Source of the DNA: Enhygromyxa salina
GTDB taxonomy: Bacteria > Myxococcota_A > Polyangia > Nannocystales > Nannocystaceae
Length of the DNA stretch: 54,364 nucleotides
Direction of reading: 5' to 3'
NCBI RefSeq assembly: GCF_002994635.1
Contig: NZ_PVNL01000139.1
Span: 146,055 to 200,418, forward strand
Shown: piece after piece, positions 15,305 through 34,914 of the stretch
How the letters are laid out: each line of letters opens with the position of its first letter
Position numbering within the stretch: position 1 is the first letter of the stretch
Made by a program: the position numbers and the translations under genes
Notes under the pieces: model-generated
Seen by the model: the letters and a program-made list of their open reading frames with translations, nothing else
What the model was told of the DNA's origin: nothing
The model's database searches: none

Positions 15305-15901
15305 ATGCTACGCTCCCGCACCTTGCGAACCCGGACACAGCCGCCACGCAGGCCCCTGTTCGCGGTGGCCATGAGCTTGCTGACCGTGGTGCCCTTGCTC
15401 GTCGGCGGCTGCATCGAGCCGCCCGAGCGCGAGGCCGACGCCGACAGCACCCACGCCAAGGCCGACGCGCCGACCAGCGCCAAGCGACAGGCCACGATCC
15501 CCGCCGACGGCTGGAACGACAACATCGCCTGGCGTGGATTCGAAGAGGGCCTCAAAGAAGCCAAGAGCTCGGGCATGCCGGTCATGATGGTCGTCCACAC
15601 CGACTGGTGCGGGAACTGCCAGAAGCTCAAGCGCACCTTCAACGCCGACGCCAAGCTCGAGCAGCTGTCCGAGCGCTTCGTCATGGTTCACGTCAACCAA
15701 GACGACAACCCCGAGGCCACGCTGTATGGGCCAGACGGCCAGTACATCCCCCGGGTGATGTTCCTCGACGCCAACGGCAACGTCGATCAGGGCCTGCAAA
15801 ACCCCAACCGGCCGAGCAGGTTCCGCTACTTCTACACGCCGCAGGAAGACCTTGTCGCGACCATGCGACGGGCCCTGGACCAGCATGGCAACAAGTCCTG
15901 A
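15305..15901 (+). CDS. thioredoxin-fold lipoprotein (thiol:disulfide oxidoreductase-like, WCGNC motif)
   Basis: ATG at 15305 right after the repeat element; signal and lipobox ...LLTVVPLLVGGC; redox motif HTDWCGNCQKL; alternative start at ATG 15371. Confidence 0.7.
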   Translation: MLRSRTLRTRTQPPRRPLFAVAMSLLTVVPLLVGGCIEPPEREADADSTHAKADAPTSAKRQATIPADGWNDNIAWRGFEEGLKEAKSSGMPVMMVVHTDWCGNCQKLKRTFNADAKLEQLSERFVMVHVNQDDNPEATLYGPDGQYIPRVMFLDANGNVDQGLQNPNRPSRFRYFYTPQEDLVATMRRALDQHGNKS

Positions 15902-17837
15902 TCGCACCTCGAATCTCCGCCGCCTGCTGCGGCCCGTGCTCGCGCCAGTCGCGGCCTTGGCAACCCTCTACGGGGGCTTTTGGCTGGCTGGCGACGCGAT
16001 CGCGGGTGACGGCTCGGGCACCGAGAGCGCCCGGCCCGGCAAGCGCAGCAAAGACGCGAACATCATCCCGATCGACGACATCAAGCCCGGCATGAAGGGC
16101 TACGCGCTGACGGTGTTCGAGGGCGAGGTCCCCGACAAGTTCGAGATCGAGGTCGTCGACGTGGTCCGCGACTACGTCACCGGGCAAGACGCCGTCCTGT
16201 TTCGCTCGCCGGATCCACGCCTGGTTCACACCGGGATCGTCGGCGGCATGTCCGGCAGCCCGATCTACATTCAAGACAAGCTCGCGGGCGCGCTCGCCTA
16301 CGGCTACCGGTTCGGCAAGGACCCGCTCGGCGGCATGACCCCGATCGAGAACATGCTCGAGGTCGCGGATCTACCCTATCGGCCCGAGGTGTTCCCCAAG
16401 ACCGCGCGCGCGAGCGGCCGGACCGGGACCGCGGCGTGGGCCGATCAAATGCTCGCGCTCGGGACCGATCAGCTGCCCGCGCGCCAGGTCCCCGAGCAGA
16501 TCCCGGGGCCCAACGGCATGCCCTCGGGCGGTCTTGCGCCGATCGGCGCGCCGATGTCGGTCGCCGGGCTCAGCCCGCACGCTGCGCAATTCTTGGCCGA
16601 CGCGACCGGCCTGGTCCCGGTGCTCGGCGGCGGCTCCATGCGCTCGGCGCCGTCTTCGGGACAAGAAGCCAGCGCCGGTACCCGCCACAAGTGGACCCCG
16701 GGCGACTCGGTCTCGGTCGTGCTGATCGCCGGGGACAACGGCGCCGCGCCCAACGGCACGGTCACGTGGGTCGGCGGCGCCCAGCAAGAAAAATTACTCG
16801 CGTTCGGCCACCCCATGTACGGCGAGGGGCCGTCCAAGTACCCGATCGCCAACGGCCACGTGCACACGATCCTCGCCAGCGTCGAGCGCTCGGTCAAGCT
16901 GTCGAGCCCGCGCGACATCCAGGGCACCATGATCCAGGATCGCCAGCCGGCGATCTCGCTGCGGACGGACATCCACACCCCGATGATCCCGGTCACGACC
17001 AGCGTGACCGGCCCCGATCCCGAGTTCAAGACCCGCAGCTACCACAGCGCCGTCGCCGACTCCGAGGTGCTCACGCCGCCGCTGGTCACCACCTTGATGC
17101 TCGACGCGATCGAGGAGGCCGGCAGCGACGCGGTCGAGGTCGTGCTCGAGACCCGGCACGAGATCCTGCTCGAGACCTCGCAGGGTCCGCGCACGCTCGT
17201 GCTCGACGAAGAGACCTACTACCCGCGCGGGATCGTGCGCGGGCTCGCGGCCCGCAGCCGCGCGCTGCTGATCATGATGGCCGCGCTCGACAACCCGTTC
17301 GAGCTCGCCAGCATCAAGTCGGTCAAGCAGAGCGCGGTCGTGCACTACGGCGCCGAGGTCGAGACCATCGATCGGATCCGCATCACCAATGAGGTGGTCC
17401 GCGCGGGCGACCTGCTCGAGATCCTCGTCGACCTCAAGCCCCCGCGCGGGCCCACGCGAACCCAGACCGTCAGCGTGCGGATCCCCGCCGACGCCGGCGG
17501 GGAGCGGGTCGTGCTCGAGCTCGGCGGCGGCGAGTGGATCACGCCCTACGCCCCGCTGCCCGGCAACCTCGACGACCTGCTCGACAACCTGGCCGCGAGC
17601 TACCCGGCGCGCAGCATCATCGGCACGATCTATCGCCCCGGCGAGGGCCTCGCGACCGAGCATGGCCTGGTTCAAGAGCTGCCCGAGAGCGTGCTGCAGA
17701 CCCTCAGCCCGGGTGGCAGCAACCGCAAGGCTGTCCACTTCAAGCAGGCCGCGCGGCGGGTGATCCGAACCAACTCGATCATCCGGGGCGAGGCCAGCCT
17801 GGAGATCGACGTGCGGCCCGCCAAGGCGATCGACTGA
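15885..17837 (+). CDS. peptidase S55 (SpoIVB-like serine peptidase) family protein
   Basis: N-terminal TM/signal (LRPVLAPVAALATLYGGFWLA); GMSGSPIY matches the GxSGSP catalytic-serine motif of SpoIVB-type peptidases; ATG at 15885 overlaps the upstream gene end by 17 nt. Confidence 0.6.
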   Translation: MATSPDRTSNLRRLLRPVLAPVAALATLYGGFWLAGDAIAGDGSGTESARPGKRSKDANIIPIDDIKPGMKGYALTVFEGEVPDKFEIEVVDVVRDYVTGQDAVLFRSPDPRLVHTGIVGGMSGSPIYIQDKLAGALAYGYRFGKDPLGGMTPIENMLEVADLPYRPEVFPKTARASGRTGTAAWADQMLALGTDQLPARQVPEQIPGPNGMPSGGLAPIGAPMSVAGLSPHAAQFLADATGLVPVLGGGSMRSAPSSGQEASAGTRHKWTPGDSVSVVLIAGDNGAAPNGTVTWVGGAQQEKLLAFGHPMYGEGPSKYPIANGHVHTILASVERSVKLSSPRDIQGTMIQDRQPAISLRTDIHTPMIPVTTSVTGPDPEFKTRSYHSAVADSEVLTPPLVTTLMLDAIEEAGSDAVEVVLETRHEILLETSQGPRTLVLDEETYYPRGIVRGLAARSRALLIMMAALDNPFELASIKSVKQSAVVHYGAEVETIDRIRITNEVVRAGDLLEILVDLKPPRGPTRTQTVSVRIPADAGGERVVLELGGGEWITPYAPLPGNLDDLLDNLAASYPARSIIGTIYRPGEGLATEHGLVQELPESVLQTLSPGGSNRKAVHFKQAARRVIRTNSIIRGEASLEIDVRPAKAID

Positions 17838-17844
17838 GCTCCCG

Positions 17845-19944
17845 ATGACCAAATCCAAGTGGTTCCCTCGTAGTTTGTTGTGCGCCTCGCTGATCCTCGC
17901 TGCTGGCTCAGCACAGGCCGGCGGCACCAAGACCCACAAGCTCGACGAGTTCGACGAGTTCGACGACGGTGAGGTCGTCGGCGCCGCGATCGAGACCAGC
18001 GGCCGGGTCACCCGGGGCTACGCCAGCGAGCGCGCCGATCTCGAGCTCAGCTCCGCGTTCACCTGCGTGACCGACGGCAAGCAAGCCTGGGTCGGGACCG
18101 CAGACAACGCCACGATCCAGCAGGTTGACCTGCGCGGCGGGACCCCGGCCGTCAAGCAGCTCGTCGAGCTCGAGGGCGTGGTCGTCAGCGCGATCGCCCG
18201 GCTGCCCAGCCAGGATCTCGTCGTCGCCGTGCTCCCTGGTTCCAAGCTGCTGCGGGTCGACAAGAACGGCGAGGTCAGCGACTTCGCCGAGCTCAAGGAC
18301 GTCGAGCAGATCTGGGCGATCGTCCCCCACAAGGGCAAGCTGCTGGTTGCGACCGGTCCCAAGGGCGAGCTGTGGTCGGTCGGCACCGACGGCAAGGACC
18401 CGAAGGTCGTGCTCGACGTGCCCGAGAAAGACATCTTGTCGGTGCTCGCCGTCGGCGACGAGATCCTAGTTGGGACCTCGCCCAAGTCGCGGCTGTACAA
18501 GCTGGACGCCGCGCTCGAGGGCGTGCTGCTCCACGAGTTCAAGGGCGATGAGATCCGCGCGCTCGCGCTGTCCGGCTCCACGGTGATCGCCGCCGTCAAC
18601 AAGTTCGAGGATCGCAGCGTGTCGAGCCGCGTGGCCCTGACCAAGCAGCTCAACCGCTCGAGCCTGACCGGCGAGAAGCCCGAGGACAACAACACCGCCC
18701 GGTCCCGCGCCGACGCCGACGCCGAGCTGTGGGCCGTGGACCTGGGCAGCAAGCGCGACGTGCTGCGTGCCCAGGACGCGGCGTGGGACAAGTGGTTCGC
18801 CAAGGGCTCGCAGTACTTCATTGATCTGATCGCGCTCGACGACAGCGGCACCGTGCTCGCGGCCAGCTCCGAGGGCGGCAGGATCTATCGGGCCCGCGGG
18901 CGCCGAGACGTCTCGATCGTCGCGGATCTCGAGGAGCGCCAGGCGACCAGCATGTGCCGGACCGACAGCGGCGACATCCTCGCAACCGCCAGCGACGGCG
19001 CGGCCGTGTACCTGCTCTCGCCCAAGGCCGCCAACGCCAAGACCAAGCCGCGCTGGGTGTCCGAGGTGCTCGACGCCGATCACCCCGCCCGCTACGGCAG
19101 CTTCGCGCTCGAGGGCAAGGGCAAGCTCGAGCTGCGCGTGCGCTCGGGGCCGACCGAGGAGGTCGATGATCGCTGGAGCGCCTGGAAGCCCGTCAAGCTG
19201 GCCAGCGAGAACGGTGAGCTGCGTGGGTCCACGGATCTGCCGCAGCGTCGCTACCTGCAGGTCGAGGTCGCGCTTGGGGACGACAGCGCCGAGCTCAGCT
19301 CGATCACTGCCTTTTACGCGCCCGAGAACCTCGCGCCGCTGGTGGAGGAGATCGACGTCAAGATGCCGAGCGTGAGCAGCAGCAGCGACGAAGAGCCCGA
19401 TCCCACGATCACGATCGAGTGGGACGCCGAGGCCCGCGATGATGACGACCTGCTGTACGAGGTTGCGATCCGGCGCACCGGGACCGGGGATGACGCCTGG
19501 GTCAGGCTCAACAAGGACGGGCCGCTCACCAAGAAGGAGATCAAGCTCGACCTCGATACCCTGGCTGACGGGATCTATGAGGTCCAGGTGATCGCCAGCG
19601 ACGAGCCCAGCAACGGCGCTGGCGCGGCGGCGCGGGACTCGTTGATCTCCGAGCCGTTCGTGATCGACCGACGTCGGCCGACGCTGGAGAACGTGCGCGC
19701 CAACGCGGGGCGGATCACCGGGGTCGCCAAGGACCAGGGGAGCTACGTGCGCGACGTGGCGTTCTCGATCGACGGTGGGGCGTTTCGGTCGGCCTCGGCG
19801 AGCGATGGGCTGTATGACTCGAGCACTGAGCAGTTCGAGCTGGTCCTGCCGAGCGAGCTTGGGCCCGGGCTGCACCGCGTGGTCGTGCGCGCGCGAGACG
19901 TGCGGGGCAACCTCACGACCGTGGCGCTCGAAGTCGGCGGCTGA
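17845..19944 (+). CDS. secreted hypothetical protein (signal peptide, repetitive beta-rich body); its 3' end is the duplicated integration site of the downstream island
   Basis: Signal MTKSKWFPRSLLCASLILAAGSAQA; no catalytic motifs recognised; last about 40 codons are duplicated at 30310-30428. Confidence 0.6.
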   Translation: MTKSKWFPRSLLCASLILAAGSAQAGGTKTHKLDEFDEFDDGEVVGAAIETSGRVTRGYASERADLELSSAFTCVTDGKQAWVGTADNATIQQVDLRGGTPAVKQLVELEGVVVSAIARLPSQDLVVAVLPGSKLLRVDKNGEVSDFAELKDVEQIWAIVPHKGKLLVATGPKGELWSVGTDGKDPKVVLDVPEKDILSVLAVGDEILVGTSPKSRLYKLDAALEGVLLHEFKGDEIRALALSGSTVIAAVNKFEDRSVSSRVALTKQLNRSSLTGEKPEDNNTARSRADADAELWAVDLGSKRDVLRAQDAAWDKWFAKGSQYFIDLIALDDSGTVLAASSEGGRIYRARGRRDVSIVADLEERQATSMCRTDSGDILATASDGAAVYLLSPKAANAKTKPRWVSEVLDADHPARYGSFALEGKGKLELRVRSGPTEEVDDRWSAWKPVKLASENGELRGSTDLPQRRYLQVEVALGDDSAELSSITAFYAPENLAPLVEEIDVKMPSVSSSSDEEPDPTITIEWDAEARDDDDLLYEVAIRRTGTGDDAWVRLNKDGPLTKKEIKLDLDTLADGIYEVQVIASDEPSNGAGAAARDSLISEPFVIDRRRPTLENVRANAGRITGVAKDQGSYVRDVAFSIDGGAFRSASASDGLYDSSTEQFELVLPSELGPGLHRVVVRARDVRGNLTTVALEVGG

Positions 19945-19946: not shown

Positions 19947-20059
19947 GCTCGAACCTGGCCGCGCCCTCGCTGACGCCGCTGGGGTTCGTGCCGCCTGCGG
20001 AGTACGACACTAGCTTGGCCTCGTGACGTCCGCCCGTGGTGTTCACCACGGCCATGAGA

Positions 20060-21244
20060 TCATCGTTCGGTGGTCGCCTGTACACGTGCCACCAGTCGCT
20101 CGCCCGCCTCCTCCCAGCCCTGAAGGGTGTCCGAATCGGTCGCTAGCTCGACCAAGTGGACCGTGATCCGCGAGCCGTCGACGTTGCGGTATCGGAACGG
20201 CCGGAGGTCGCTCAGCATCCCCTTGGGGAACACCAGCACGGCCTGTCGCGCGCCGGTCATCCAGCAGTAGGTCAGCGTCTGTTGGAGGTTCGCCGACGCG
20301 GGGGTGGTCTTGTACTTGGCGTCGACGATCACGGGGCGGTCACCGTCGCAGCGCTCGAGCAATACGTCGATCTCCATGCTGCCCCCGTGGACCGAGGCGT
20401 CCACCGGGCCGCGTCGGTACGGGAGCTGAACCTTCGCGCGCGCGCCGGGCAATGACCGGGTGAGCGCGCGGGCGACCGAGCGCTCGAACAAGTTGGCGAG
20501 GTTGATCAGAAACGAGAGCCCGCGGACGCCCGTGCCCTCTGTCAGGCCGTGGGCGTGAGCCAGCAACAGGGCCAGGGCGACGCTCGGCTCGAACGGACGC
20601 TCGAGTCGGGTCAAGGGCAGCTTGCCGCTGACCAGCGCAGGTTCGACGCGGGGCTGGACCTCGGCGAACAGCGCGGTCAGGGGACCGAGGGCCGGCCCTG
20701 CGGCGGCGCGCATGACGGACACTCGTTGGATCGACGCCAGCGCGGCCGCGAGCAGCCCGTTCAAAGGCGTGTTCGGGAGCCTCGAGAACACGATGCAGGG
20801 GACTTGGGCCAGGTTCGCGCCCATCCGAGACATCCGGGCGAAGTCGATACGACCGCGTACGACCGACGAGACCTGCTCTTGCCGGCGATAGTGGCGGAGC
20901 AGCCCCGTCGCCTGGATCGCGCGACTCAGCTCGTCGCAGAACACCCGCGCGAGCGCGGCCGCGACGTCGCCCTGTTCACCGCCGTGGTCGCTGCGACTCA
21001 CGTGCCGCAGAGCCGACAGCTCCGGGTAGGCATAGGCGGCCCAAGTTAGCAGACACGCGAGCGGAGCCTTGCGCGAGCGTATGCACAGGGTCGATCCATC
21101 CGGCATGCGCAGCGAGCCTGCGACCCGCACGATTCGCATGCCATCGGCGCTGACCCCAAAGTTCCCACCCAGCAGTCGCCCGAGGTGACTGGCATGCTCT
21201 GGCGACGCAGCGAAGGGCTCGTTCTCGTAGACGACCCGAACCAT
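20060..21244 (-). CDS. mcrC: McrC-like endonuclease subunit (PD-(D/E)xK) of an McrBC-type modification-dependent restriction module
   Basis: C-terminal nuclease motif PVIVDAKYK (PD...D-A-K) typical of McrC; ATG at 21244 overlaps the McrB stop (TGATG); in-frame TTG at 21247 is an alternative start. Confidence 0.75.
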   Translation of the reverse strand: MVRVVYENEPFAASPEHASHLGRLLGGNFGVSADGMRIVRVAGSLRMPDGSTLCIRSRKAPLACLLTWAAYAYPELSALRHVSRSDHGGEQGDVAAALARVFCDELSRAIQATGLLRHYRRQEQVSSVVRGRIDFARMSRMGANLAQVPCIVFSRLPNTPLNGLLAAALASIQRVSVMRAAAGPALGPLTALFAEVQPRVEPALVSGKLPLTRLERPFEPSVALALLLAHAHGLTEGTGVRGLSFLINLANLFERSVARALTRSLPGARAKVQLPYRRGPVDASVHGGSMEIDVLLERCDGDRPVIVDAKYKTTPASANLQQTLTYCWMTGARQAVLVFPKGMLSDLRPFRYRNVDGSRITVHLVELATDSDTLQGWEEAGERLVARVQATTER

Positions 21245-22965
21245 CAAGGCTCCGCCACCTGGCCCTCCTCGAGCTCGTCATCCTCGTCTTGGAGGGTCTG
21301 GCGGTCGGAGAGCTCGCGCGAGACGATCGCCCGCCAGATTCCGTCGGCCTCGGCCAAGGCCTGCTCGTCACCGAAGAAGTACTCCTCGAGCAGCGGCCGG
21401 ATGTCCATCGCCCATAGCTGCCCGAACGGGTCGCCGTCCTCGACCAGCGCTGGGGACAGGAAGTAGCTGTGGCCGATCTGATGGTCCCGGTCGAGACGCT
21501 TGGCGATCCACTGGTTGAACGCATCGAGGATGCCCGGACCCACTTCGGCGATCAGCCCGGGCACACGGGCCGCCCCAACGACCTCTGGGTTGGGGTCGAC
21601 GCGGACGAACCCGAACCGACGACGCAGTGCGTAGTCGACCAACGCCACGCTGCGATCGACCGAGTTCATCGTGCCGATCACCACGAGGTTGGGCGGAACG
21701 ACCAGCTTGCCCCCGAGCGCGAGGGTCACGGACTCACCACGGTACTCGAGCGCGTAGAGCAGCTCGCCAAAGATCCGCGCTGGGTCACCACGGTTGATCT
21801 CGTCGATCACCAGCACGTAAAAATTGTCGGGGTCCTCGCCCGCCGCCTCGGCGATCTGCACGAACGGCCCCTTGGTCTGCTCGTAGCGCAGCGTGGTCTG
21901 CTTGATGTCTGGACGCAGGCCCTGGATGAAGTCCTCGTAGGCGTAGCTGGGGTGGAACTGGACCAGGCGAAACCGTCCGTCCTCGTCGGCCGCGTCCTCG
22001 CCTGTGAGCGCGCGAGCGACCTGCTTGGCGACGTGGGTCTTGCCGGTGCCGGGTGGGCCGTAGAAGATCAGGTTGCGGGGCGGGGCGAGGTCCGGGGACG
22101 CGCCGAGCTGAGGGGCGAGACGGAGGGTCAGGGCGTCGTGGATGGGCTTGCCGAGCTTGGGCCGGAGGCGTTGCCAGGTGTCGAGCACCCGATGGGCGGG
22201 GGCATTGGCGGTCGGTGGCGGCCACACGGGGGCGCCTCCACTCCCGTCGGCCCGCACCTTGGCGCTGGCGGGCGCAAACCCGTTGGGATCCCAGCCGTCG
22301 CGCTCTTGCTCGAGGTGCAGGCGCCCGGCAGGAGTGATCTTCCACTGGCCGGTCTGGGGGTTCTCGGCGAGCCCTCGCTTCCCGAGGTTCGAGAGCGCCC
22401 AGGCGGCTCGGAACTCGAACACCCGGACACCGCCAGGCATGAGACGAAGGTCGCCCGGTCGGAGTCGGTCGCCGAGGTGTCGCTCGACGCGCTCGAGGAT
22501 CTCCCCGCGATCGGTGAGGTTGAGGGCCAGCGCTTCGAGTATGGGGACCTCATAGGCTTTGAATGCCGTGACCTCGACGGTGTCGGTCTGGACCTTGCGC
22601 GCGATTGGCTCGGTGGCCTCGGGGATGGCGAGGTCGACGGAGAGTGGATCGCTCTCGTGAGCACGGGCGTGGGCACGGCCGAGCTCGGTGAGCTCCCACC
22701 AGCCGTACTCGCCGACGATGAGGCCTGCGTGCTTGAGGTCGTGTCGAGCCCAACCGAATCGGTTCTTTGACTCGAGGTAGTCGAGCTGCCCCTCGGTGAG
22801 CTCTCCCGCCAAGAGCTCTCGGATCCTGATCACGACCCTCTGCTTGCGAGCACGGCCGCCGAGCTGGCTCAGCGCACGTGTGACCGGGACGAAGAATGGG
22901 CGGTGGGAGCTCGAGGTCGCAGCCAAGCTCGCTTCGGCCGCTTCGAGGGTGGGGTCGTTGGTCAT
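21244..22965 (-). CDS. mcrB: McrB-like AAA+ GTPase subunit with N-terminal tandem Mrr_N-like winged-helix (DNA-reader) domains
   Basis: Walker A NLIFYGPPGTGKTH; Walker B/McrB box FYVLVIDEINRGDPARIFGELLYALEYR; McrB signature IGTMNSVDRSVALVDYALRRRF (the MNTADRS motif); N-terminal repeats resembling Mrr N-terminal wHTH (GWARHDLKHAGLI..., ...WALSNLGKRGLAE...WKITPAGR); ATG overlaps helicase stop (ATGA). Confidence 0.85.
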   Translation of the reverse strand: MTNDPTLEAAEASLAATSSSHRPFFVPVTRALSQLGGRARKQRVVIRIRELLAGELTEGQLDYLESKNRFGWARHDLKHAGLIVGEYGWWELTELGRAHARAHESDPLSVDLAIPEATEPIARKVQTDTVEVTAFKAYEVPILEALALNLTDRGEILERVERHLGDRLRPGDLRLMPGGVRVFEFRAAWALSNLGKRGLAENPQTGQWKITPAGRLHLEQERDGWDPNGFAPASAKVRADGSGGAPVWPPPTANAPAHRVLDTWQRLRPKLGKPIHDALTLRLAPQLGASPDLAPPRNLIFYGPPGTGKTHVAKQVARALTGEDAADEDGRFRLVQFHPSYAYEDFIQGLRPDIKQTTLRYEQTKGPFVQIAEAAGEDPDNFYVLVIDEINRGDPARIFGELLYALEYRGESVTLALGGKLVVPPNLVVIGTMNSVDRSVALVDYALRRRFGFVRVDPNPEVVGAARVPGLIAEVGPGILDAFNQWIAKRLDRDHQIGHSYFLSPALVEDGDPFGQLWAMDIRPLLEEYFFGDEQALAEADGIWRAIVSRELSDRQTLQDEDDELEEGQVAEP

Positions 22966-25910
22966 GATGCGGCCGTCAACGTACGAGGCCCGGGCCCGAG
23001 ATCAATCGCGAGCGACTCCGCCAACCGCGACGGCAGCTCCGGAGGCTCGACATCGTGAAGTTCGTACTCGTTGAACTGAGGTTGGGCGCCGAGCAAGAAC
23101 TCGAGCCACTTCTCGCGTAGCTTCACCGTGCGGAACATGCGTTCGTCGATGGTCCCCCTGATCACCGGGTAGAGTACATCGAGCTTCGCGTCCGGCGTCT
23201 CGCTACGGACGCGAACGAGCTTGGATCCGAGTCGGTCGATCCGGCCGATTCGTTGCTCAATCTGCGCCGGGTTCCAGACGAGGTCATGGTGGACCACGCG
23301 ACGACAATGTCGATGGAGGTCGAGGCCCTCTTGCATGACTTCGTTCGCGACCAGGACCATTGGAAACAGCGGGGTGTTGAAGGCCTCGCGCAGGCGATCG
23401 CGCCCCTCGGGGCTCTTGGTGTGTCGGACAAAGCTGCCCGACCGGATCGGTCCCTCGAGGATCATCGCCTGCTGCCGATCGTCCCGATCGATGAAGTACT
23501 CGAGGAAGCTCCGCACGAGCTCGAGCCAATGCCGGCCTTCGGGCAGCGTCCAATACTGATCGAGGAACGCCAAGCTCGGGGCGGAGTGGACAGGGTCGAC
23601 GGAGAGACCATGGTCAATGGCCGCGTGGAGGAACTCCGGCACGAACGGGACCTGTCGATAGGTGAGGTACCGGCTCAGCTGCTCGACGACGCGGACCCGC
23701 AGCTTCAGCGCCAGCCGATCCAAGAGCCCGGTCACCGACTCCCAGAGATTTCCGTGCTCTCCGATCACCAGGCGGGCAATCGATTCACTGACGGTCCAAG
23801 TGGGGCGCTGATCGCCTACCGAGTCATTCTCAAATTCGTCTTTCTCGAGATCGAGCCCGAGGGTCAGGAAGTCGGCGCGCAAGATGGCGTGGATCGCTTC
23901 CGGGTTTGCGGCCGCTGCGACCGGCCGACCGGCGTGTTCCCACAAGCGAACCGCAGCCTGCTCGACACATCGCTTGGCGACCTGGTAGCTGATGTCGCTC
24001 GCAGCGGAGCTTGCGACGGTCACCGACCGCAGGAGCCGATTCGCCTCCTCCGCGATCGGCCCAACGTTGACCAGGGCCCAGCCGGAGATCGGTACGACGG
24101 TGCGAAGGTATCGCTCGCGCAGCGCCAGGTATAGCGAATCCTGAGCTCGGTGAAACCGTTGCTGAAGTCGGGTGTGCTTGCCACGGACTCGGCTGGGGTC
24201 TTCGCCTTCACCCTTGCGGTCAAAGATCTCGTCGGCGGTCGCGCCGGGATAGACCCGCTGCCAGCGAGCGAGCATCCGCTGATCCCAAGCGGCTCGAATC
24301 TCGCGTCGCAGCTGCTCGAGGGTGGCGACACGCGAGCAGAAGATGAGGGTCTTCTCTCCGCCTTCGGCAGCCGTCAACGCGTCAGCGATCCCGAATTCGA
24401 GCTTGGGGTGGCTCTCTGCGCTGGCGTCGATGTGACCAAGCACGCTTTTGAGCAGCTCGCGGTAGACCTCGGCCTGCGGCGGCAGGGGGGTGCCTTCAGT
24501 CGTCATGATCGCGCCACCCGACGCGGCCGCATAGGAGGACACCATGTTGATCTCGACGGCGGCCTTGTGCGTGGGGCGGTGACGTCGAAACATCTCGGCG
24601 GTCAGGCGCTCGTAGATCAGGAAGGGCAAGACCGAGTCACCCTTGGCGTCGAGGGTCTTGGGCTGGTGGTCCCGGTACTGGCGCTTGTCCTCGCGCAGAC
24701 TGCGGATCATCCACTTGCGAAACCCGGGTTCGATGACGTCGTTCTTCAGTCGTCGGAGGTTCTTCACCTGCGCCAGCACGATCTGAAGGCTCTCATCCTC
24801 GGGTGCGTAGCGCTCCGGGTCAGCGTCGTAGTCGCGCGAGAACTCGGCCGCGACGAATGGTTCGAGGTTGGTCCAGGTGGTTTGAAACGCGTCGTAGGCG
24901 TGTTGGTACTCGCGGACTTTGGACAACAGGGCGTCGATCTCGTCGAGCAGGCCCCTCGGTGCTGACTTGGCCAAGCTAAACAGGCCGAAGACCTCGCGGA
25001 GCTCGCCGATGTCGAGCTGGAAGGGCGTCGCGGTCAGGAACACGGCCTTGTGAAAGCCGTTGTGGAAGATGGTTCTCATGCCCTGAGAGCGCAAAGAGCC
25101 CGAGTTCTTTAGCTTGTGGGCCTCGTCGACGATCAGCAGGTCGATGGCGGGGAGTAGGCGGCCGGCGAGGATGAAGCGCGCTCGATACAGGGCGTTGCGG
25201 ACGGCGTAGGGTCGTTCGAAGCCAGCCAGACCTTCGGCTTCATAGATGTCATCGAGTCCAGCCCAGCCTTTGCTGCCTTCACCCTCACCCTTCTTCCCTC
25301 GATGGAATGCCGACCGCAAGTGTCGCTCGAGATCTCCGAGACCGAAATGTCCGAGGAAGCGCTCGTGCGTGACGTCGACGCGCTCGTGCTTCCCCTCCCT
25401 GAACCTGGCCATGATCGCGTTCGCGGTCCTGCCGTGGAGACCCTTCCAGTGAAAGAACAAAGACAGCAGGTAGGTCTGTGCGCCTCCGCCCTTGCCCCCC
25501 TGGAACATGGTCACCGGAGAGACGACGATCGGGTGTTCACGAACCAGACGGATGAACCCCGAGAGGCTGGTCGCCGACTGCACCTCCCCCCCGAAGTCGT
25601 ACATCTGCTTGAAGCGCGCAAATTCTTCGACCCACTTCGTGTTGAGGTCGGGCCCGGGCGTGACGACGACGATCCGCGCCTTGGGCTTGCGATGTCGGAC
25701 GGCCGCGGCGAGGCCGAGCGCCTCGAAGGTCTTCCCCATCCCGACCTCGTCAGCCAAGATGACGCCCGGGCGATCTTCGAGCGTATGCAGGGCGCGAAGG
25801 ACAGTGTCCTCCTGCCGACGCACATCCCGAGACGGGATCCCGTCCTGCGCTCGCCGAGCGCCCAGCTGCAAGAAACACCGAAGCCAATCTAGGGTCGCCG
25901 TGTCAGTCAT
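22962..25910 (-). CDS. SNF2-family (SF2, DEAH-box) helicase/ATPase
   Basis: Motif I ILADEVGMGKTFEA, motif II LLIVDEAHKLKN, motif III FLTATPFQ, helicase-C motifs LVANEVMQEGLDLHRHCRRVVHHDLVWNPAQIEQRIGRIDRLG; ATG at 25910 overlaps the stop of the upstream PLD gene (ATGA); the 5' extension of the raw ORF (to 26627) is out-of-frame read-through. Confidence 0.85.
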   Translation of the reverse strand: MTDTATLDWLRCFLQLGARRAQDGIPSRDVRRQEDTVLRALHTLEDRPGVILADEVGMGKTFEALGLAAAVRHRKPKARIVVVTPGPDLNTKWVEEFARFKQMYDFGGEVQSATSLSGFIRLVREHPIVVSPVTMFQGGKGGGAQTYLLSLFFHWKGLHGRTANAIMARFREGKHERVDVTHERFLGHFGLGDLERHLRSAFHRGKKGEGEGSKGWAGLDDIYEAEGLAGFERPYAVRNALYRARFILAGRLLPAIDLLIVDEAHKLKNSGSLRSQGMRTIFHNGFHKAVFLTATPFQLDIGELREVFGLFSLAKSAPRGLLDEIDALLSKVREYQHAYDAFQTTWTNLEPFVAAEFSRDYDADPERYAPEDESLQIVLAQVKNLRRLKNDVIEPGFRKWMIRSLREDKRQYRDHQPKTLDAKGDSVLPFLIYERLTAEMFRRHRPTHKAAVEINMVSSYAAASGGAIMTTEGTPLPPQAEVYRELLKSVLGHIDASAESHPKLEFGIADALTAAEGGEKTLIFCSRVATLEQLRREIRAAWDQRMLARWQRVYPGATADEIFDRKGEGEDPSRVRGKHTRLQQRFHRAQDSLYLALRERYLRTVVPISGWALVNVGPIAEEANRLLRSVTVASSAASDISYQVAKRCVEQAAVRLWEHAGRPVAAAANPEAIHAILRADFLTLGLDLEKDEFENDSVGDQRPTWTVSESIARLVIGEHGNLWESVTGLLDRLALKLRVRVVEQLSRYLTYRQVPFVPEFLHAAIDHGLSVDPVHSAPSLAFLDQYWTLPEGRHWLELVRSFLEYFIDRDDRQQAMILEGPIRSGSFVRHTKSPEGRDRLREAFNTPLFPMVLVANEVMQEGLDLHRHCRRVVHHDLVWNPAQIEQRIGRIDRLGSKLVRVRSETPDAKLDVLYPVIRGTIDERMFRTVKLREKWLEFLLGAQPQFNEYELHDVEPPELPSRLAESLAIDLGPGPRTLTAAS

Positions 25911-28063
25911 GATTGCACTCCGTAGAACGAGCGAACCTGCGCGAGCCAGGCCCGAGGCGGCGAGTCCGATACCAGCGTGTCGAGGTCGGACTGAAGCTGC
26001 TCGACAAAGCCGTCGAGGTAGCCCCTCTTCTTGTCGCTGGCGTCGTCGTCGGGCAAGTGAACGGTCGAGAGCTCCCGCAGCAGCTCGGCCCCGTAGAACC
26101 AGATCGTGTCGCGCGAGAACGCCTCCGTGGCGGCCGCCTCGAGCATGCGCTTCCAGACCGCGCGCAGCCCCAACGAGCCGTCGATACCGAGCCGAAAGGC
26201 GGCAACCGAGGTCTCGGGATGAGCGAGTTCGGCCGCCACGCTCCACCACGCCTTGAACACGTCGGTGGGACCGAAGCCGAGCCCAAACAACTCGTCGAGC
26301 GGGGCGTCGGAGTCCGAGCCAGCCACGAGACGCTGTTGCGTCAGATGCTCGAGGCGTTCGCGTCCCAAGCGTCGGCCCAACAGCAGCAAGAGCTCGTAGA
26401 GGCCCAACAATCCTTCGCCGGGACCAACCGGGAGCGCGACGAGGTCGCTGACCAAGATCGGGATCGCGCATGCGAAGTCGCCGACGATCAGCGTGAGCTC
26501 GGCGCTGGATCGGTGGAGGTCGAACTCGTTGATGACCGTGGCCTGCGTGGGGGCCCCGACCCCGCTGGCGACGATGGCGTCGCGGTAGGTGAGTGACCAC
26601 GCAGGCAGCACGACCGCTTGGGTCCACTCGACGACCAGCGTTCGAGCGGCGGCGTCATACACCGCGTCGAGCACCGCCAGCGCGTAGTTGGGGCCCAGGT
26701 CGGGGAACTCGCGCTCGTGCACCGACACCGCGAGGTGTGGGCACGCGACGAGATCAGGGGCGATGTCGTCGAGCGCGAGCGACCCCTCGACCTTTTGCGC
26801 GAAGCACAGCTCGACGTTGCCAGTCTGCGCCGTGGTCAGCAACAACGCCTTGCGCGATGCGTTGGCCGAGCCCACGACGACCAGGGTCTCGCTGCGGCCC
26901 GCGGTCTCGTACGCGAGCACGAGCAGCTTGGCGTGGAGCGGGCGATAGACCAGCCGCCCATCGACCAACTGGGTCGTGGGGTGCAGCCACACCTGCATGG
27001 ACTCGAAGGCGGCGCGGGCGGATTCGAGGGCCGCGGGCGGTGCGTAGGCGCGGGGCTGCTCCAACGGCCAGAGGGTCTGTTTGGCGAGCGCGGCCTCGAT
27101 ACCCTTCAATGGCCACGACTGACGTTCGGCGTGCGCATCGAGGCCGTGGAGTCGGGTCCGCGCGACCTTGGTCGGGACCAGGTAGGTCACGGCCTCGTTC
27201 CCAGCCTCGTCTTTGCCGAGCCACCCCCACAAGCGGCCGAGACCGTCGGCGATGCGTGTGGTGTGTGACTGGGGCCGGACCGCCGGGTTCTCCCAGAGCA
27301 CGCCGACATCGAGGTGCGCGCTCGGACCGGCGAGCTGGTACAGACGGCCAAACACGGAGTCGAGCGACTCGGCGGCGGCTCGATCATCACGCTCGAAGAA
27401 CGGCGCCATGATCCCGACTCGCTCGATGACGGCGTCTGCAGGCAACAGCGCGAGCGCCTGGTCGAGGATGCAGCTATCCAGGGTCGAGTCGAGGCACGCG
27501 ACCGAGCTGTCCACGTCTCCCGTCCGCCCTGGCAGGCGGCGCTCGAACTCCTCCATGAACAAGTGAAGTTGCGTGCCTCGTCGCCGCGCAAACGCTGAAG
27601 CCCGCTCGATGCACCCGACCAGCTCGTGCAGCGTCTGCGCCTCCGACTGGATGTCGTAGCGAAGGTCGAGGGTGAGGAACAGCTCCGCGTTGCTCCCATA
27701 GCCAGCCGAGGTCAGGTTGCCCGATCCGACATGGACCCGAGCGAAGCCCTCGTAGAGCAAGATCGCCAGCTTCGAGTGAAAGACTCGGGCCGACACGTCG
27801 AGGAGGTCGTAGGCCAGGCGGCGTCCACCCTGGCGCACGCCGGCGTCCGCGATCACGGCGATCGGCGTGACTTGCAAGCTGGCGAGCGCCTCGTCGTGGT
27901 AGCGCGTCGGCTGCTCGACGGGGTCTGAGCTGAGCCGGAGGACCGCGCGCAGGACGTGGTTTTCGAAGAACGACGGGTCGAACGCGTAGGTGAGAAACAG
28001 GGCCCCGAAGCACATCTCCTCGGCAGCGAGACGGTCGAGCACCTTGCCGACGGCGACCTTCAC
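25907..28063 (-). CDS. phospholipase D-family (two HKD motifs) nuclease, 718 aa
   Basis: HKD motif 1 HSKLAILLYEGFARVHVGSGNLTSAG and HKD motif 2 HAKLLVLAYETAGRSETLVVVGSANAS; GTG start at 28063 preceded by GGGAGG (5 nt spacing), overlapping the upstream stop (GTGA). Confidence 0.8.
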   Translation of the reverse strand: MKVAVGKVLDRLAAEEMCFGALFLTYAFDPSFFENHVLRAVLRLSSDPVEQPTRYHDEALASLQVTPIAVIADAGVRQGGRRLAYDLLDVSARVFHSKLAILLYEGFARVHVGSGNLTSAGYGSNAELFLTLDLRYDIQSEAQTLHELVGCIERASAFARRRGTQLHLFMEEFERRLPGRTGDVDSSVACLDSTLDSCILDQALALLPADAVIERVGIMAPFFERDDRAAAESLDSVFGRLYQLAGPSAHLDVGVLWENPAVRPQSHTTRIADGLGRLWGWLGKDEAGNEAVTYLVPTKVARTRLHGLDAHAERQSWPLKGIEAALAKQTLWPLEQPRAYAPPAALESARAAFESMQVWLHPTTQLVDGRLVYRPLHAKLLVLAYETAGRSETLVVVGSANASRKALLLTTAQTGNVELCFAQKVEGSLALDDIAPDLVACPHLAVSVHEREFPDLGPNYALAVLDAVYDAAARTLVVEWTQAVVLPAWSLTYRDAIVASGVGAPTQATVINEFDLHRSSAELTLIVGDFACAIPILVSDLVALPVGPGEGLLGLYELLLLLGRRLGRERLEHLTQQRLVAGSDSDAPLDELFGLGFGPTDVFKAWWSVAAELAHPETSVAAFRLGIDGSLGLRAVWKRMLEAAATEAFSRDTIWFYGAELLRELSTVHLPDDDASDKKRGYLDGFVEQLQSDLDTLVSDSPPRAWLAQVRSFYGVQS

Positions 28064-29442
28064 GAGAGCCTCCCGAGATCGTGGAGCAGCCGCTGGACGA
28101 CACCAAGCTTGAACTCCGGAAACTGGGCCCTCGTGCGATAGCCCGTGTAGTTGGTGGCCTGCAAGATGAGCTTGTCGTCCTGCCGACGGATCCACGACCC
28201 TCCACCGCGCCGAGACTGCTGCACGGCCCGGTGAAACGCGAGCAGTCGATCGAGGGCCGTCGAGCTATCGGCAACCGAGAGCTCCACGACGAGCTGCATC
28301 ATGGGAGGCCCGTGGAACACGAGTCGGCGAAAGCGGGCCGAAGCCGGGGCATCGAGGACCTCGCGACACGCAGCACGCAGCTCGTCCATTTGTGCGGCTG
28401 GAAACGCGGCGCTGGCCGTGGCCGCGAAGTCGGCGACCCAGTTGTGGTCGTTGATGAACGCATAGGCGCTGGCGAAGCGATCGAGCACGAGCTGAGCGAA
28501 GCGGCCAAACGCGATCGCGGTCTGGACCAAGTCTCGCAACGGGGGATCGAGCGGGCCCCAACGGCCCTCCAACATCCCTTCGAGCAGCTCGGCGGACGCG
28601 TCCACGCCGTCCCGTCGAGCGGCGATCAGCTGGTGGGCGAGCGACAAGGTCGTGCCGTCGCGGGCGTTGAGGAACAAGGCTTGCCATAGCCGATCCTGCT
28701 GAGCCTTTCGGCCGCGCTCGGTCAGCGACGACAAGCGCGACATCTTCCCGACCTTGGCGAGCGAGATTCTTCCGTGCTTGCGCTCGATCGTGAGCCGCTT
28801 GGGGTCGAGGGCTCGGAGCGCGTACTCCTGGTACTGGCCCACGGCCTGATTTTGGTCGGGTTCGTCCCAGAACGCGTCGATGATCGTCCTGGCTGCCAGC
28901 GATGGTCGCAGCGTGCCAGGGACCACGAGCTTGTATGTCCGCAGCGACGACAGGTAGGCACCAAGGCTCCCCAGCTCGCTCTGACGAGAGATCAGGCTAT
29001 AGTCGAGCCGCAACGGCCTGGCTCCGTCGAACCACGCTCGCGTGGCCCCACGTATGCCTCGCATCCCGTCCGCGTGACCTCGCCCCAGCGACCGACCATG
29101 AGACTCGAGCGTGGCCAGTGCCCAGAACCGTTCCCAGCGCTCGAACAGCTTGGTGCGCGAGACGTCGTCGCTCGGGATGTCATACCGCTGACAAGCGAGC
29201 TCGGCGAGATGCAGCCCGTAAATGACGACGGCGTAGTTCTGTGCCCGGCTCGTACGGGTCGTGAACCCTTCGAACAGCCACAGGCCGACCTGTTGTCCGA
29301 GGTAGTCGAACGCCAGCGGGTCCTCGGGCGTGAAGTCGGAGTCGAGGTCGAGGGGCGCCGACCAGTATAGCGTCTTGGGCAGAGTTTTTTGTGTCAGCAA
29401 CATGAGATCACGACGACGGGTCGGCACGATATCCAAACGCAC
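28060..29442 (-). CDS. hypothetical protein (460 aa), first gene of the five-gene PLD/SNF2/McrBC operon
   Basis: GTG at 29442 with GGGAGA 8 nt upstream; high GC3 throughout; no recognisable motifs; stop overlaps the PLD start. Confidence 0.6.
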   Translation of the reverse strand: MRLDIVPTRRRDLMLLTQKTLPKTLYWSAPLDLDSDFTPEDPLAFDYLGQQVGLWLFEGFTTRTSRAQNYAVVIYGLHLAELACQRYDIPSDDVSRTKLFERWERFWALATLESHGRSLGRGHADGMRGIRGATRAWFDGARPLRLDYSLISRQSELGSLGAYLSSLRTYKLVVPGTLRPSLAARTIIDAFWDEPDQNQAVGQYQEYALRALDPKRLTIERKHGRISLAKVGKMSRLSSLTERGRKAQQDRLWQALFLNARDGTTLSLAHQLIAARRDGVDASAELLEGMLEGRWGPLDPPLRDLVQTAIAFGRFAQLVLDRFASAYAFINDHNWVADFAATASAAFPAAQMDELRAACREVLDAPASARFRRLVFHGPPMMQLVVELSVADSSTALDRLLAFHRAVQQSRRGGGSWIRRQDDKLILQATNYTGYRTRAQFPEFKLGVVQRLLHDLGRLS

Positions 29443-29500
29443 CCGTTTTGTCTCCCATGGGTCTCGCTCCGCGCGGTAGGAAGACTGCTAGATTTCAGCC

Positions 29501-29848
29501 GTGGGAATTCGAACCAAGGGCCGAAGGCGGATCGAGGTCGAGGGTCAGGCCTACCATTGGGACTACCGCGCGAGCGGGCGCGGGCCGGGGCAGATCACGG
29601 CCGACGACATGTACTTCGCGCCGCGGCCAGCGGTGGTTCGCATCATCGCCGAAGACAAGAGCCTCCTCGCGACCTGGGACGGCGTCCACCTCCACGTCGG
29701 CGAGCTGCGCCGGGAGCTGCGGCCCCACCACATCGCCCCGGTCACGCCCAAGCTCGTGCGCCAGCTGATCCAAGAGGCCCTGCGCCTACGCGGCTCGGAC
29801 CGAGATCCACGGATCACCCCAGCGCGGTGGTGGCTGGACTTCGAGTAG
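29501..29848 (+). CDS. hypothetical small protein (115 aa) at the right end of the island
   Basis: GTG start, high GC3, no homology recognised; may be non-coding. Confidence 0.3.
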   Translation: MGIRTKGRRRIEVEGQAYHWDYRASGRGPGQITADDMYFAPRPAVVRIIAEDKSLLATWDGVHLHVGELRRELRPHHIAPVTPKLVRQLIQEALRLRGSDRDPRITPARWWLDFE

Positions 29849-30309
29849 CACCCATACGATTGCAATCAAATCTGCGCGAGCACGTGGACGTCGCGGCCGA
29901 CCTGGCGCACGCAATCCACCAAATCCTCGAGCTCTTTGAGCTGCGCGCGGGTCATGGTGAAGGCGCCGATCGGATCGACAGAAACGAAGATCGTCAGCCA
30001 GCTCCCGGTCCAGCGAAACGTCGCGTTCGCGCGCTCGACCCGGGCGTCGGCGGCGTTGGAGTCGAGCAGGGTCCGGCGCCAGAGCCAGAGCTGGCGGCGT
30101 CGTAGGTGTCTGGATCCCCCTGCCCCGAGCGTCGTCGCGTCGATGAAGCGATCCTCGGAGCACCGGCACGCGGTCGAAGCATTTTTCACGGGGTCGGGCA
30201 CCGCGGGGGATGGTTCGGCTCCACCAGCGTCGAAGATCGGCACGGTGCTGGCAATGCCGCCCCACCAGCATGGCCAACATCAACGATCTCTTCCACGGCC
30301 TCGAGCGCC

Positions 30310-33098: not shown

Positions 33099-34007
33099 CT
33101 AGAGCGGCATCTTGTCTTTGCCGGCCTTGATGTCGTCCATGCTGGCCGAGACGCCAACCTTGACGTCGGGGCCGGACGCCTCGATCTTCACGCTCTCGAC
33201 CACGCCCGCGAGCTCCGGGGGAGCCTGGCCCTTGAGGCCGTCGAACATCTCCTGGATCTTGTCGGCGGTCGCCTTGGCCTTGGCCTCGTCGCCGAAGCCG
33301 GCGATGAAGTCGAGCGCGACGCCCTTGCTCAGATCCACGCTGCCCGCGACGGTCTTGACGGCGGTCGCCTCGGGAGCGGCCATCGCGGCCATGCCAGCGA
33401 GTTCGGCGGGGACGTCGGCGATGAACCACACGGCGGCCTTGGCGTCGACCTTGCCGTAGAGGTCCTTCTTGCCGTTCTCGATCGCGGGGGTGCCCTTGCC
33501 GTCGATCAGCTCGCCGACCTTGTCCTCCCACGCGGTCGTGGACAGGGCCATCATGTTCTTGTTGACCAGGTAGGCCCGGCCGTCAGTGAACTGGATGACC
33601 TTCTTGCCGTCCTCTTTGCTGACCTCGGCGGCCTCTTCCTCGCCGCTCATCTTCTGGATGTTCTTGATGACGCACGAGGCGTTGTCGTCCTCGCCGATCC
33701 CGTCACCGACGATGACCGCGACGAAGTCCTCGGTCTGGCTGGCACCGATCACGACCGCGTCGAACTCGGTGGGCTTGAGCCCGCAGTCCTCGAAGGCCTT
33801 CATGGCCTCCTTGAAGTCATCTTCCTTCTCGAACTCCGAGGAGAACTCCTTGTAGAGGTCCGAGCCGGTGATGGTCTTGGGGTTCAACCCAACGATGAAT
33901 TCAGCCTCGTCGGGGATGAGCTTGACTGCGTCGGCGCTCGCTCCCCCCTTGCAGGCGGGAAGAACCAACAGGGAGACAGCCAGCGACGTCGTCCAGATAC
34001 GCTTCAT
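33099..34007 (-). CDS. hypothetical lipoprotein (tandem paralog 2, Lys/Glu-rich, lower GC)
   Basis: ATG at 34007 gives MKRIWTTSLAVSLLVLPAC (lipobox); AAG/GAG-rich codon usage unlike its neighbour. Confidence 0.6.
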   Translation of the reverse strand: MKRIWTTSLAVSLLVLPACKGGASADAVKLIPDEAEFIVGLNPKTITGSDLYKEFSSEFEKEDDFKEAMKAFEDCGLKPTEFDAVVIGASQTEDFVAVIVGDGIGEDDNASCVIKNIQKMSGEEEAAEVSKEDGKKVIQFTDGRAYLVNKNMMALSTTAWEDKVGELIDGKGTPAIENGKKDLYGKVDAKAAVWFIADVPAELAGMAAMAAPEATAVKTVAGSVDLSKGVALDFIAGFGDEAKAKATADKIQEMFDGLKGQAPPELAGVVESVKIEASGPDVKVGVSASMDDIKAGKDKMPL

Positions 34008-34227
34008 GGTCGTCGGCTTATACGCGGGCGCAACTCTCGCGGTCAAGCCGGTGTGCACCCGCTCGCGCACGAAAGATTCTCACTCGGCTGATCGGCGGCT
34101 CGCGCGGCTCGCCGAACAGAGCACCGCTCGCTTCTCTAGGCCGTTCTGCGGCGGCGCGAAGTTAGCGCGGACGGTTTGGAGACGCGATGTGCAGGATCGA
34201 GCCTGCCCGGCTACCATCCCCGCGCTC

Positions 34228-34914
34228 ATGCCCTGGAAGGCCTTCGAATATCGCGGTGAGTCAGTCTGGGTTCGGGTGCTGGAGACCGGCAAGCCGATCG
34301 TGCGGCGCGGGCTCGTGGAGTTTCGCTACAAGCAGGGGGCGATCAAGTCGTACCGCACCCAGCGGGAGAACTTCGAGGAGGCCGGCGAGGGCACGGGCGA
34401 GATCCTCTCGGATGAGGCGTTCGGCGGACAGGCCACCACCCCTTCGACCAAGCTCCGCGAACAGCCGGCGGTCGCCGCCGACGAGCAGACGATCGTGATC
34501 CACACCGACGGCGCGTGCTCCGGCAACCCCGGCCCGGCGGGGATCGGCGTGCACATCGTGCGGCCCGACAAGATCAGCGAGATCAGCGAGTACATCGGCG
34601 AGGCGACCAACAACGTCGCCGAGCTGCGCGCGATCCTCCGCGCGATCGAGGAGCTCCACGAGGACGAGCGCGAGCGGACGATCCACCTCTATACCGACAG
34701 CGGCTGGTCGCTCGGGGTGCTGATCGGCGGCTGGAAGGCCAAGAAGAACGTCCCGCTGATCGACAAGATCAAGGCCAGGCTGCCCGAGTTCCCCAAGCTC
34801 GAGCTGCTCAAGGTGCGCGGCCACGCCGGGCAAGACGGCAACGAAGAGGCGGACGCGCTCGCCACCAAGGCGGTCAGGATCGAAGACTCGACCGTCCGCG
34901 AACGCCCGCGGTAG
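34228..34914 (+). CDS. rnhA: ribonuclease HI with about 75-aa N-terminal extension
   Basis: RNase H catalytic blocks IHTDGACSGNPGPAGIG, NNVAELRAIL, LYTDS, VRGHAGQDGNEEADALA. Confidence 0.8.
   Translation: MPWKAFEYRGESVWVRVLETGKPIVRRGLVEFRYKQGAIKSYRTQRENFEEAGEGTGEILSDEAFGGQATTPSTKLREQPAVAADEQTIVIHTDGACSGNPGPAGIGVHIVRPDKISEISEYIGEATNNVAELRAILRAIEELHEDERERTIHLYTDSGWSLGVLIGGWKAKKNVPLIDKIKARLPEFPKLELLKVRGHAGQDGNEEADALATKAVRIEDSTVRERPR

Follow-up and report, generated by a model that had tools for sequence, protein, structure and literature searches.

Whether a run of genes that start and stop within one another should be read as a single multi-component machine, or as separate systems that have come to share one transcript, is the question raised by a locus of Enhygromyxa salina in which five minus-strand genes, here named A to E, lie end to end. 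The locus belongs to a window of 54,364 nucleotides (the whole stretch of DNA that was analysed: contig NZ_PVNL01000139.1, positions 146,055 to 200,418 of the forward strand), and a preliminary description made from the letters alone had suggested that the genes possibly form a new five-gene system. The analysis points instead to two autonomous DNA-targeting anti-phage modules joined in one translationally coupled operon, a reading that is given a probability of about 0.7. Genes A to C make up a stand-alone triad related to Azaca and PDC-M27, and genes D and E encode McrBC, which lies downstream of the triad in only 1 of the 30 distinct loci that extend at least 1.5 kb beyond gene C. The locus is a divergent Azaca-like triad joined to a canonical McrBC, and its interest rests on an unrecognised clade and on the recurrence of type IV nucleases as neighbours. 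The features on which the argument draws are the following:

28060 to 29403, minus strand: gene A, first gene of the triad, a 447-amino-acid protein that is putatively ZacA/PDC-M27A-like
25907 to 28063, minus strand: gene B, a predicted 718-amino-acid two-HKD nuclease of the PLD superfamily, ZacB-like
22962 to 25910, minus strand: gene C, a predicted 982-amino-acid SNF2-family ATPase of helicase superfamily 2 (SF2), ZacC/PDC-M27C-like
21244 to 22965, minus strand: gene D, McrB, with two N-terminal Mrr_N winged-helix reader domains followed by an AAA+ GTPase
20060 to 21244, minus strand: gene E, McrC, the PD-(D/E)xK nuclease subunit
20072 to 29385, minus strand: the five-gene cassette, one collinear blastn block and the apparent unit of inheritance or transfer
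28060 to 28063, minus strand: A/B junction, start/stop overlap GTGA
25907 to 25910, minus strand: B/C junction, start/stop overlap ATGA
22962 to 22965, minus strand: C/D junction, start/stop overlap ATGA
21244, minus strand: D/E junction, TGATG, a one-base overlap of mcrC with mcrB

All five open reading frames (ORFs) are present at the positions given by the preliminary description, and only the start of gene A is revised: a GTG at 29442 had been chosen, and the ATG at 29403 is most likely the true start because the NCBI record and all homologues begin there. The first protein, described as 460 amino acids long and motif-less, is accordingly shortened to 447, and it has no match in Pfam, NCBIfam or PADLOC. 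E. salina, a marine myxobacterium, has database entries identical to three of the proteins: ENSA7_77210 (100% identity to gene A) and those of McrB and the PLD nuclease. Each of the four overlaps was read in the sequence as claimed, and domain searches agree with the earlier naming of a two-HKD PLD nuclease, an SNF2 helicase, an McrB with Mrr_N domains and an McrC; the four enzymes, genes B to E, all retain their catalytic motifs. A search around the operon for tRNA genes and for promoter or terminator consensus sites yielded nothing informative.

The argument turns first on the behaviour of the triad elsewhere. A profile of gene A homologues served to collect loci from metagenomes and from genomes, the latter at one per species, and these loci were then screened by tblastn with the five window proteins. 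The order A-B-C was found unchanged in 43 loci, corresponding to 35 distinct loci outside the window if those whose gene A differs by more than 3% are counted as distinct. Triads were found in Myxococcota, Planctomycetota, Pseudomonadota and Acidobacteriota, with hosts including, among others, Burkholderia, Caballeronia and Bradyrhizobium; the gene A family amounts to about 260 cluster representatives, and no gene A relatives were found in viral contigs. All-against-all clustering of the flanking ORFs revealed no fourth gene family recurring beside the triad, which appears from this survey to be a conserved three-gene operon lacking a fourth partner, as an Azaca operon does. The further neighbours are highly variable and mostly of defence type, among them OLD/AAA_21, an SF1 helicase, a ResIII helicase, an SMC-like ATPase and an integrase. 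One triad is carried by a 127-kb plasmid of Methylocystis sp. MJC1 (locus L039, NZ_CP107561.1, 123881-127344 and continuing past the origin); upstream of it stand an XRE-family gene and a QueC-like ‘7-cyano-7-deazaguanine synthase’ gene, which may represent a Qat-like defence system. Decayed triads were also encountered (L060:10001-11619, L070:7043-8649 and L059:2028-4959), in which gene A is intact and gene B ends after about 80 residues, followed by unrelated genes.

The only triad locus that bears McrBC is the closest relative of the window, a Nannocystaceae-like metagenome contig whose gene A and McrB are 78% and 80% identical to those of the window; by tblastn (E ≤ 10 for genome-contig loci and E ≤ 1e-4 for metagenome loci), McrB and McrC stood beside the triad only in this group, L030. 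The next relatives of the triad (65–66% identity) lack McrBC and hold an unrelated small gene in its place. In the two next-closest triad relatives these small genes, at L033:16438-17421 and L002/L035:16403-17017, are related to each other, encode 204–327 amino acids and belong to no Pfam family; the one in L002/L035 overlaps the end of gene C at its stop codon. On the side of the other module, McrB proteins of the Mrr_N type exist in great number, such McrBC systems abound without the triad, and the nearest McrB relatives outside the five-gene loci (69% and 64% identity) belong to plain two-gene McrBC pairs in unrelated contexts. As judged from these comparisons, both halves are autonomous elsewhere. 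The outcome that the preliminary description had named as refuting its proposal, a lack of conserved co-occurrence of the PLD/SNF2 pair with McrBC in other genomes, is largely borne out, and the suggestion of a new five-gene system is not supported.

Independent occurrence of the two modules, together with triad neighbours that are highly variable and mostly other defence-type genes, would also suit mere adjacency, in which the overlap between gene C and mcrB is accidental and the two systems neither complement nor influence each other. Such an accident is improbable in view of the five-gene relative: the window and metagenome contigs L030/L031 are joined by one collinear blastn alignment, 20072-29385, at 76% nucleotide identity, which spans exactly the five genes, and the relative keeps all four overlaps. 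The flanks of the two cassettes are unrelated, so that the genes have stayed joined, overlaps intact, through this divergence and a changed context; moreover, type IV neighbours recur beside the triad in three further lineages. The five-gene arrangement is, as far as the alignment indicates, a real unit inherited or transferred together and confined to one narrow lineage. The proportion of G and C at third codon positions (GC3) is 0.80–0.87 in the five genes versus 0.90 ± 0.02 in 11 other long ORFs of the window, and the cassette of about 9.3 kb was probably acquired horizontally. In the five-gene relative, an HNH-endonuclease-domain protein is encoded just upstream of gene A (L031:53-835), with no counterpart in the window. 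Regarding the earlier inference that the overlaps imply obligate co-expression and probably a physical complex, co-expression holds in the lineage of the window and a five-protein complex is not indicated.

The PLD fold of gene B was confirmed, with the nuclease domain of SauUSI among the top structural matches and a C-terminal beta and helical extension; as is expected of ZacB, the protein is a PLD-family nuclease with intact HKD motifs, and it matches the PADLOC model of ZacB at 6e-13. Gene C matches SNF2-rel_dom (1e-14) and Helicase_C (8e-12) in Pfam, and its highest PADLOC match is PDC-M27C (3e-49), followed by ZacC (9e-30) and DrmD (1e-26); across 25 homologues, conservation reaches at least 95% in its Walker A motif GMGKT (G57-T61), its DEAH box at 262-265 and its motif VI. 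DpdE is also among the best defence-model matches of genes B and C in PADLOC.

These matches bear on a further alternative, in which the triad serves DNA repair or chromatin remodelling instead of defence and adjoins McrBC by chance. SNF2 and PLD/Tdp1-like folds do occur in repair proteins, and the flanking genes of the window are without PADLOC matches. Yet the best matches of genes B and C are defence models (ZacB, PDC-M27C, ZacC, DrmD and DpdE), and the triad has a patchy occurrence among phyla, some of its copies being decayed. Restriction, OLD, helicase and integrase genes abound around it, one plasmid copy sits beside a QueC-like gene, and its GC3 is atypical for the host, all of which makes a non-defence role highly improbable.

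Among known systems, the closest likeness is to Azaca (ZacA-ZacB-ZacC), which reportedly goes back to Millman et al. in 2022. The triad shares with it the gene order, namely a protein of about 400–450 amino acids without assigned function, a PLD nuclease and an SF2/SNF2 ATPase, as well as the lack of a methyltransferase, and agreement extends to the architecture and to two of the three components (ZacB and ZacC). It differs in that gene B has 718 amino acids versus 586 positions in the ZacB model, in that it resides in myxobacteria, planctomycetes and proteobacteria and not in Bacillus, and in that it is joined to McrBC at the window locus. In the sole biochemical study of Azaca, which concerns a Bacillus system, the system defended against phage T4 by more than 1e6-fold and preferentially cut T4 DNA, which bears glucosyl-hydroxymethylcytosine, and this cleavage needed all three Zac proteins and the Walker A motif of ZacC (bioRxiv 10.1101/2025.07.10.664194).

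Gene A is tied to ZacA more loosely. Its product is mainly alpha-helical with winged-helix-like sub-domains, and neither it nor any of 27 close relatives matches PADLOC ZacA or Pfam DUF6361, the family given for ZacA in the literature. An exhaustive profile search retrieved distant relatives of similar length, of which 37 were examined; their alignment with the A family covers 415 columns (hhalign E 5e-50), and 15 of them match PADLOC ZacA weakly (best E 1.9e-8) and 9 match PDC-M27A (best 5e-24), with no Pfam match at all among the 37, DUF6361 included. Since none of these proteins, gene A included, matches DUF6361, the link from gene A to ZacA and PDC-M27A is a weak and transitive one that would pass through intermediate relatives only. 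In L093, a triad farther removed, the first gene (432 amino acids) has no significant similarity to the A profile, and the first subunit therefore diverges past detection across the superfamily.

PDC-M27 is an untested ‘phage defence candidate’ of PADLOC-DB, derived from guilt-by-embedding in BREX, DISARM or type I restriction–modification loci (bioRxiv 10.1101/2024.01.29.577857). It shares the architecture of an unassigned protein, a PLD nuclease and an SNF2 ATPase, and provides the best PADLOC match of gene C; this match is partial, amounting to 166 bits over three stretches of the 892-position model, and of the remaining two PDC-M27 models that for the first protein is not matched by gene A and that for the nuclease is reached by gene B at E 0.012 only. 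A distant triad of a 432-amino-acid protein, a PLD and an SNF2 protein was observed inside a DISARM-like locus (L095:1-17992, GCA_017884215.1), flanked on one side by an SNF2 gene and an MmeI-type methyltransferase and on the other by a 1207-amino-acid helicase and an MZB/DUF1998 gene; this placement fits the guilt-by-embedding origin of PDC-M27. Taken together, the comparisons place the triad in the Azaca (ZacABC)/PDC-M27 superfamily as a third and apparently divergent clade, a distant relative of Azaca and not a member.

DISARM and SauUSI were compared as well. A pairing of SNF2 (DrmD-like, 1e-26) with PLD (DrmC-like, 0.012) is shared with DISARM, whereas the NCBIfam DrmD score of gene C is 112 bits against a cut-off of 610 bits. 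DISARM membership was rejected since a DrmA/YprA-like helicase, DrmB (DUF1998/MZB) and a methyltransferase are missing from the five proteins; no DrmA, DrmB or methyltransferase domains were found in the flanking ORFs scanned over about 15.8–36 kb of the window either, so that both the exclusion of DISARM and the absence of a methyltransferase from the operon, as noted in the preliminary description, are borne out. SauUSI unites a PLD nuclease, an SF2 ATPase and a reader in one chain, which parallels the division of labour in the triad; it is, however, one polypeptide with an SRA-like reader of modified cytosine, whereas the functions are here spread over three proteins, and no modified-base reader was identified in genes A, B or C.

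Genes D and E are predicted to form a canonical type IV McrBC. Gene D matches Mrr_N in two stretches (6.6e-22) and AAA_5 (2.7e-20) in Pfam, NCBIfam McrB at 1.4e-43 (under the equivalog cut-off) and E. coli McrB of the Protein Data Bank (PDB; 6hz4) at 2.8e-44, and it carries a Walker A motif GPPGTGKT at 303, a Walker B motif VIDE at 385 and the NxxD motif as NSVD at 434; McrB_lid is listed for it in precomputed Pfam assignments. Gene E matches Pfam McrBC over profile positions 6-318 of 318 (3.5e-21), NCBIfam McrC (1e-11) and the McrC of T. gammatolerans (PDB 6ut5_G, 7e-5), with the nuclease motif D...VDAK at residues 308-310. The pair shares with the McrBC of E. coli, and with the T. gammatolerans structures 6ut3/6ut5, the Walker A/B and NxxD GTPase, the McrB lid, the PD-(D/E)xK McrC and the gene overlap. 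It differs by having a tandem Mrr_N winged helix where E. coli has the McrB-N domain, an Mrr_N variant that is itself common; in addition, no separate promoter region is visible for the pair, since mcrB starts before gene C has ended.

In three other, unrelated lineages, the triad is directly adjoined on the same strand by a gene for an Mrr-family type IV nuclease carrying Mrr_cat, with or without Mrr_N:

L012:8556-9692, same strand as the triad: Mrr-type gene 6 bp upstream of A, in another E. salina strain
L016:16447-17376, same strand as the triad: Mrr-type gene 16 nt downstream of C, with an SMC-like ATPase gene next in line
L023:9066-9977, same strand as the triad: Mrr-type gene 24 bp upstream of A

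A modification-dependent nuclease is the immediate same-strand neighbour in 5 of about 36 lineages when the window is included, as a raw count. Recurrence of this kind lends some weight to an integrated five-component system, in which McrBC (or Mrr elsewhere) supplies modified-DNA recognition or a second nuclease for the PLD-SNF2 motor: modification-dependent nucleases adjoin the triad in five lineages (the window, L030, L012, L016 and L023), all four junctions overlap and are kept at 76% nucleotide identity, and Azaca prefers modified T4 DNA. Against it, McrBC is missing from 29 of the 30 distinct loci whose sequence continues for 1.5 kb or more downstream of the triad, an Mrr-type neighbour is found in just 3 of 35, solitary McrBC of this type abounds, and the partner varies both in kind (McrBC or Mrr) and in side (upstream or downstream), which resembles the shuffling of defence islands; furthermore, single operons that unite McrBC with other restriction systems have already been described (eLife 10.7554/eLife.94800). 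The integrated system is accordingly considered unlikely. A functional coupling of the triad with a modification-dependent nuclease, in which the reader directs or licenses the motor or the two act in an obligatory sequence so as to make a new composite type IV system, must be deemed doubtful as well.

If two autonomous modules are indeed joined here, complex formation, substrates and synergy between the modules can be envisaged as follows. By analogy with the Azaca of Bacillus, the products of A, B and C would assemble in one complex, in which the SNF2 ATPase might draw on ATP for DNA engagement or translocation, thereby licensing the PLD nuclease; the two HKD halves of the single B chain would form the PLD active site and cut foreign double-stranded DNA, and the gene A product would serve as an essential structural or DNA-contacting subunit. 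In the second module, modified DNA would be recognised by the Mrr_N winged-helix domains of McrB and translocated by the AAA+ GTPase ring into which McrC is inserted, and the PD-(D/E)xK site of McrC would cut. Co-transcription would then provide two methyltransferase-free layers of restriction that are plausibly complementary on modified phage DNA. Because neither module includes a methyltransferase, the arrangement fits the recognition of features of foreign DNA rather than self-protection based on methylation. McrBC-type enzymes classically act on methylated or hydroxymethylated cytosine and not on glucosylated DNA. Given that Azaca cuts the glucosyl-hydroxymethylcytosine-bearing DNA of T4 and McrBC addresses other modifications, their pairing could widen the coverage of modified phages; by this analogy, pairing the triad with McrBC or Mrr may give a layered restriction of modified phage DNA.

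Several points weigh against joining two autonomous modules of these identities. Genes B and C score far under the level of true members on the Zac models, and gene A is without a direct match to ZacA or DUF6361, with weak scores even for the sequences that bridge the gap. The substrate preference suggested for the clade carries over what a preprint describes for a single Bacillus system. Moreover, the ATGA overlap between gene C and mcrB is kept in both five-gene loci, where it forces co-expression and is compatible with a functional or physical link.

The surroundings of the operon complete the picture of the window. Upstream, the region 29404-30309, including a small ORF at 29786-30283, is not conserved with the cassette and gave no matches; a 115-amino-acid ORF at 29501-29848 on the plus strand, divergent from gene A, has a gene-like GC3 of 0.86 and no family match, and is not conserved in the five-gene relative. 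Two adjacent plus-strand genes at 15852-19944 converge on the mcrC end and encode a 661-amino-acid protein with a weak match to SpoIVB peptidase S55 and a 699-amino-acid protein with no match; no PADLOC model matched either. Farther away, at 33868-34914 on the plus strand, lies a gene for a 348-amino-acid protein with a C-terminal RNase H/RVT_3-like domain (9e-23) and an N-terminal part of about 200 amino acids without a family match.

The finding has consequences for how this family is counted and understood. The models of PADLOC-DB v2.0.0 used here fail to recognise a complete system in the triad, since the first, ZacA-like subunit is too divergent to match, and censuses that rely on these models may under-count the family. 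Azaca-like systems, in turn, may belong to a methyltransferase-free, modification-targeting arm of restriction that is combined with McrBC or Mrr for wider coverage.

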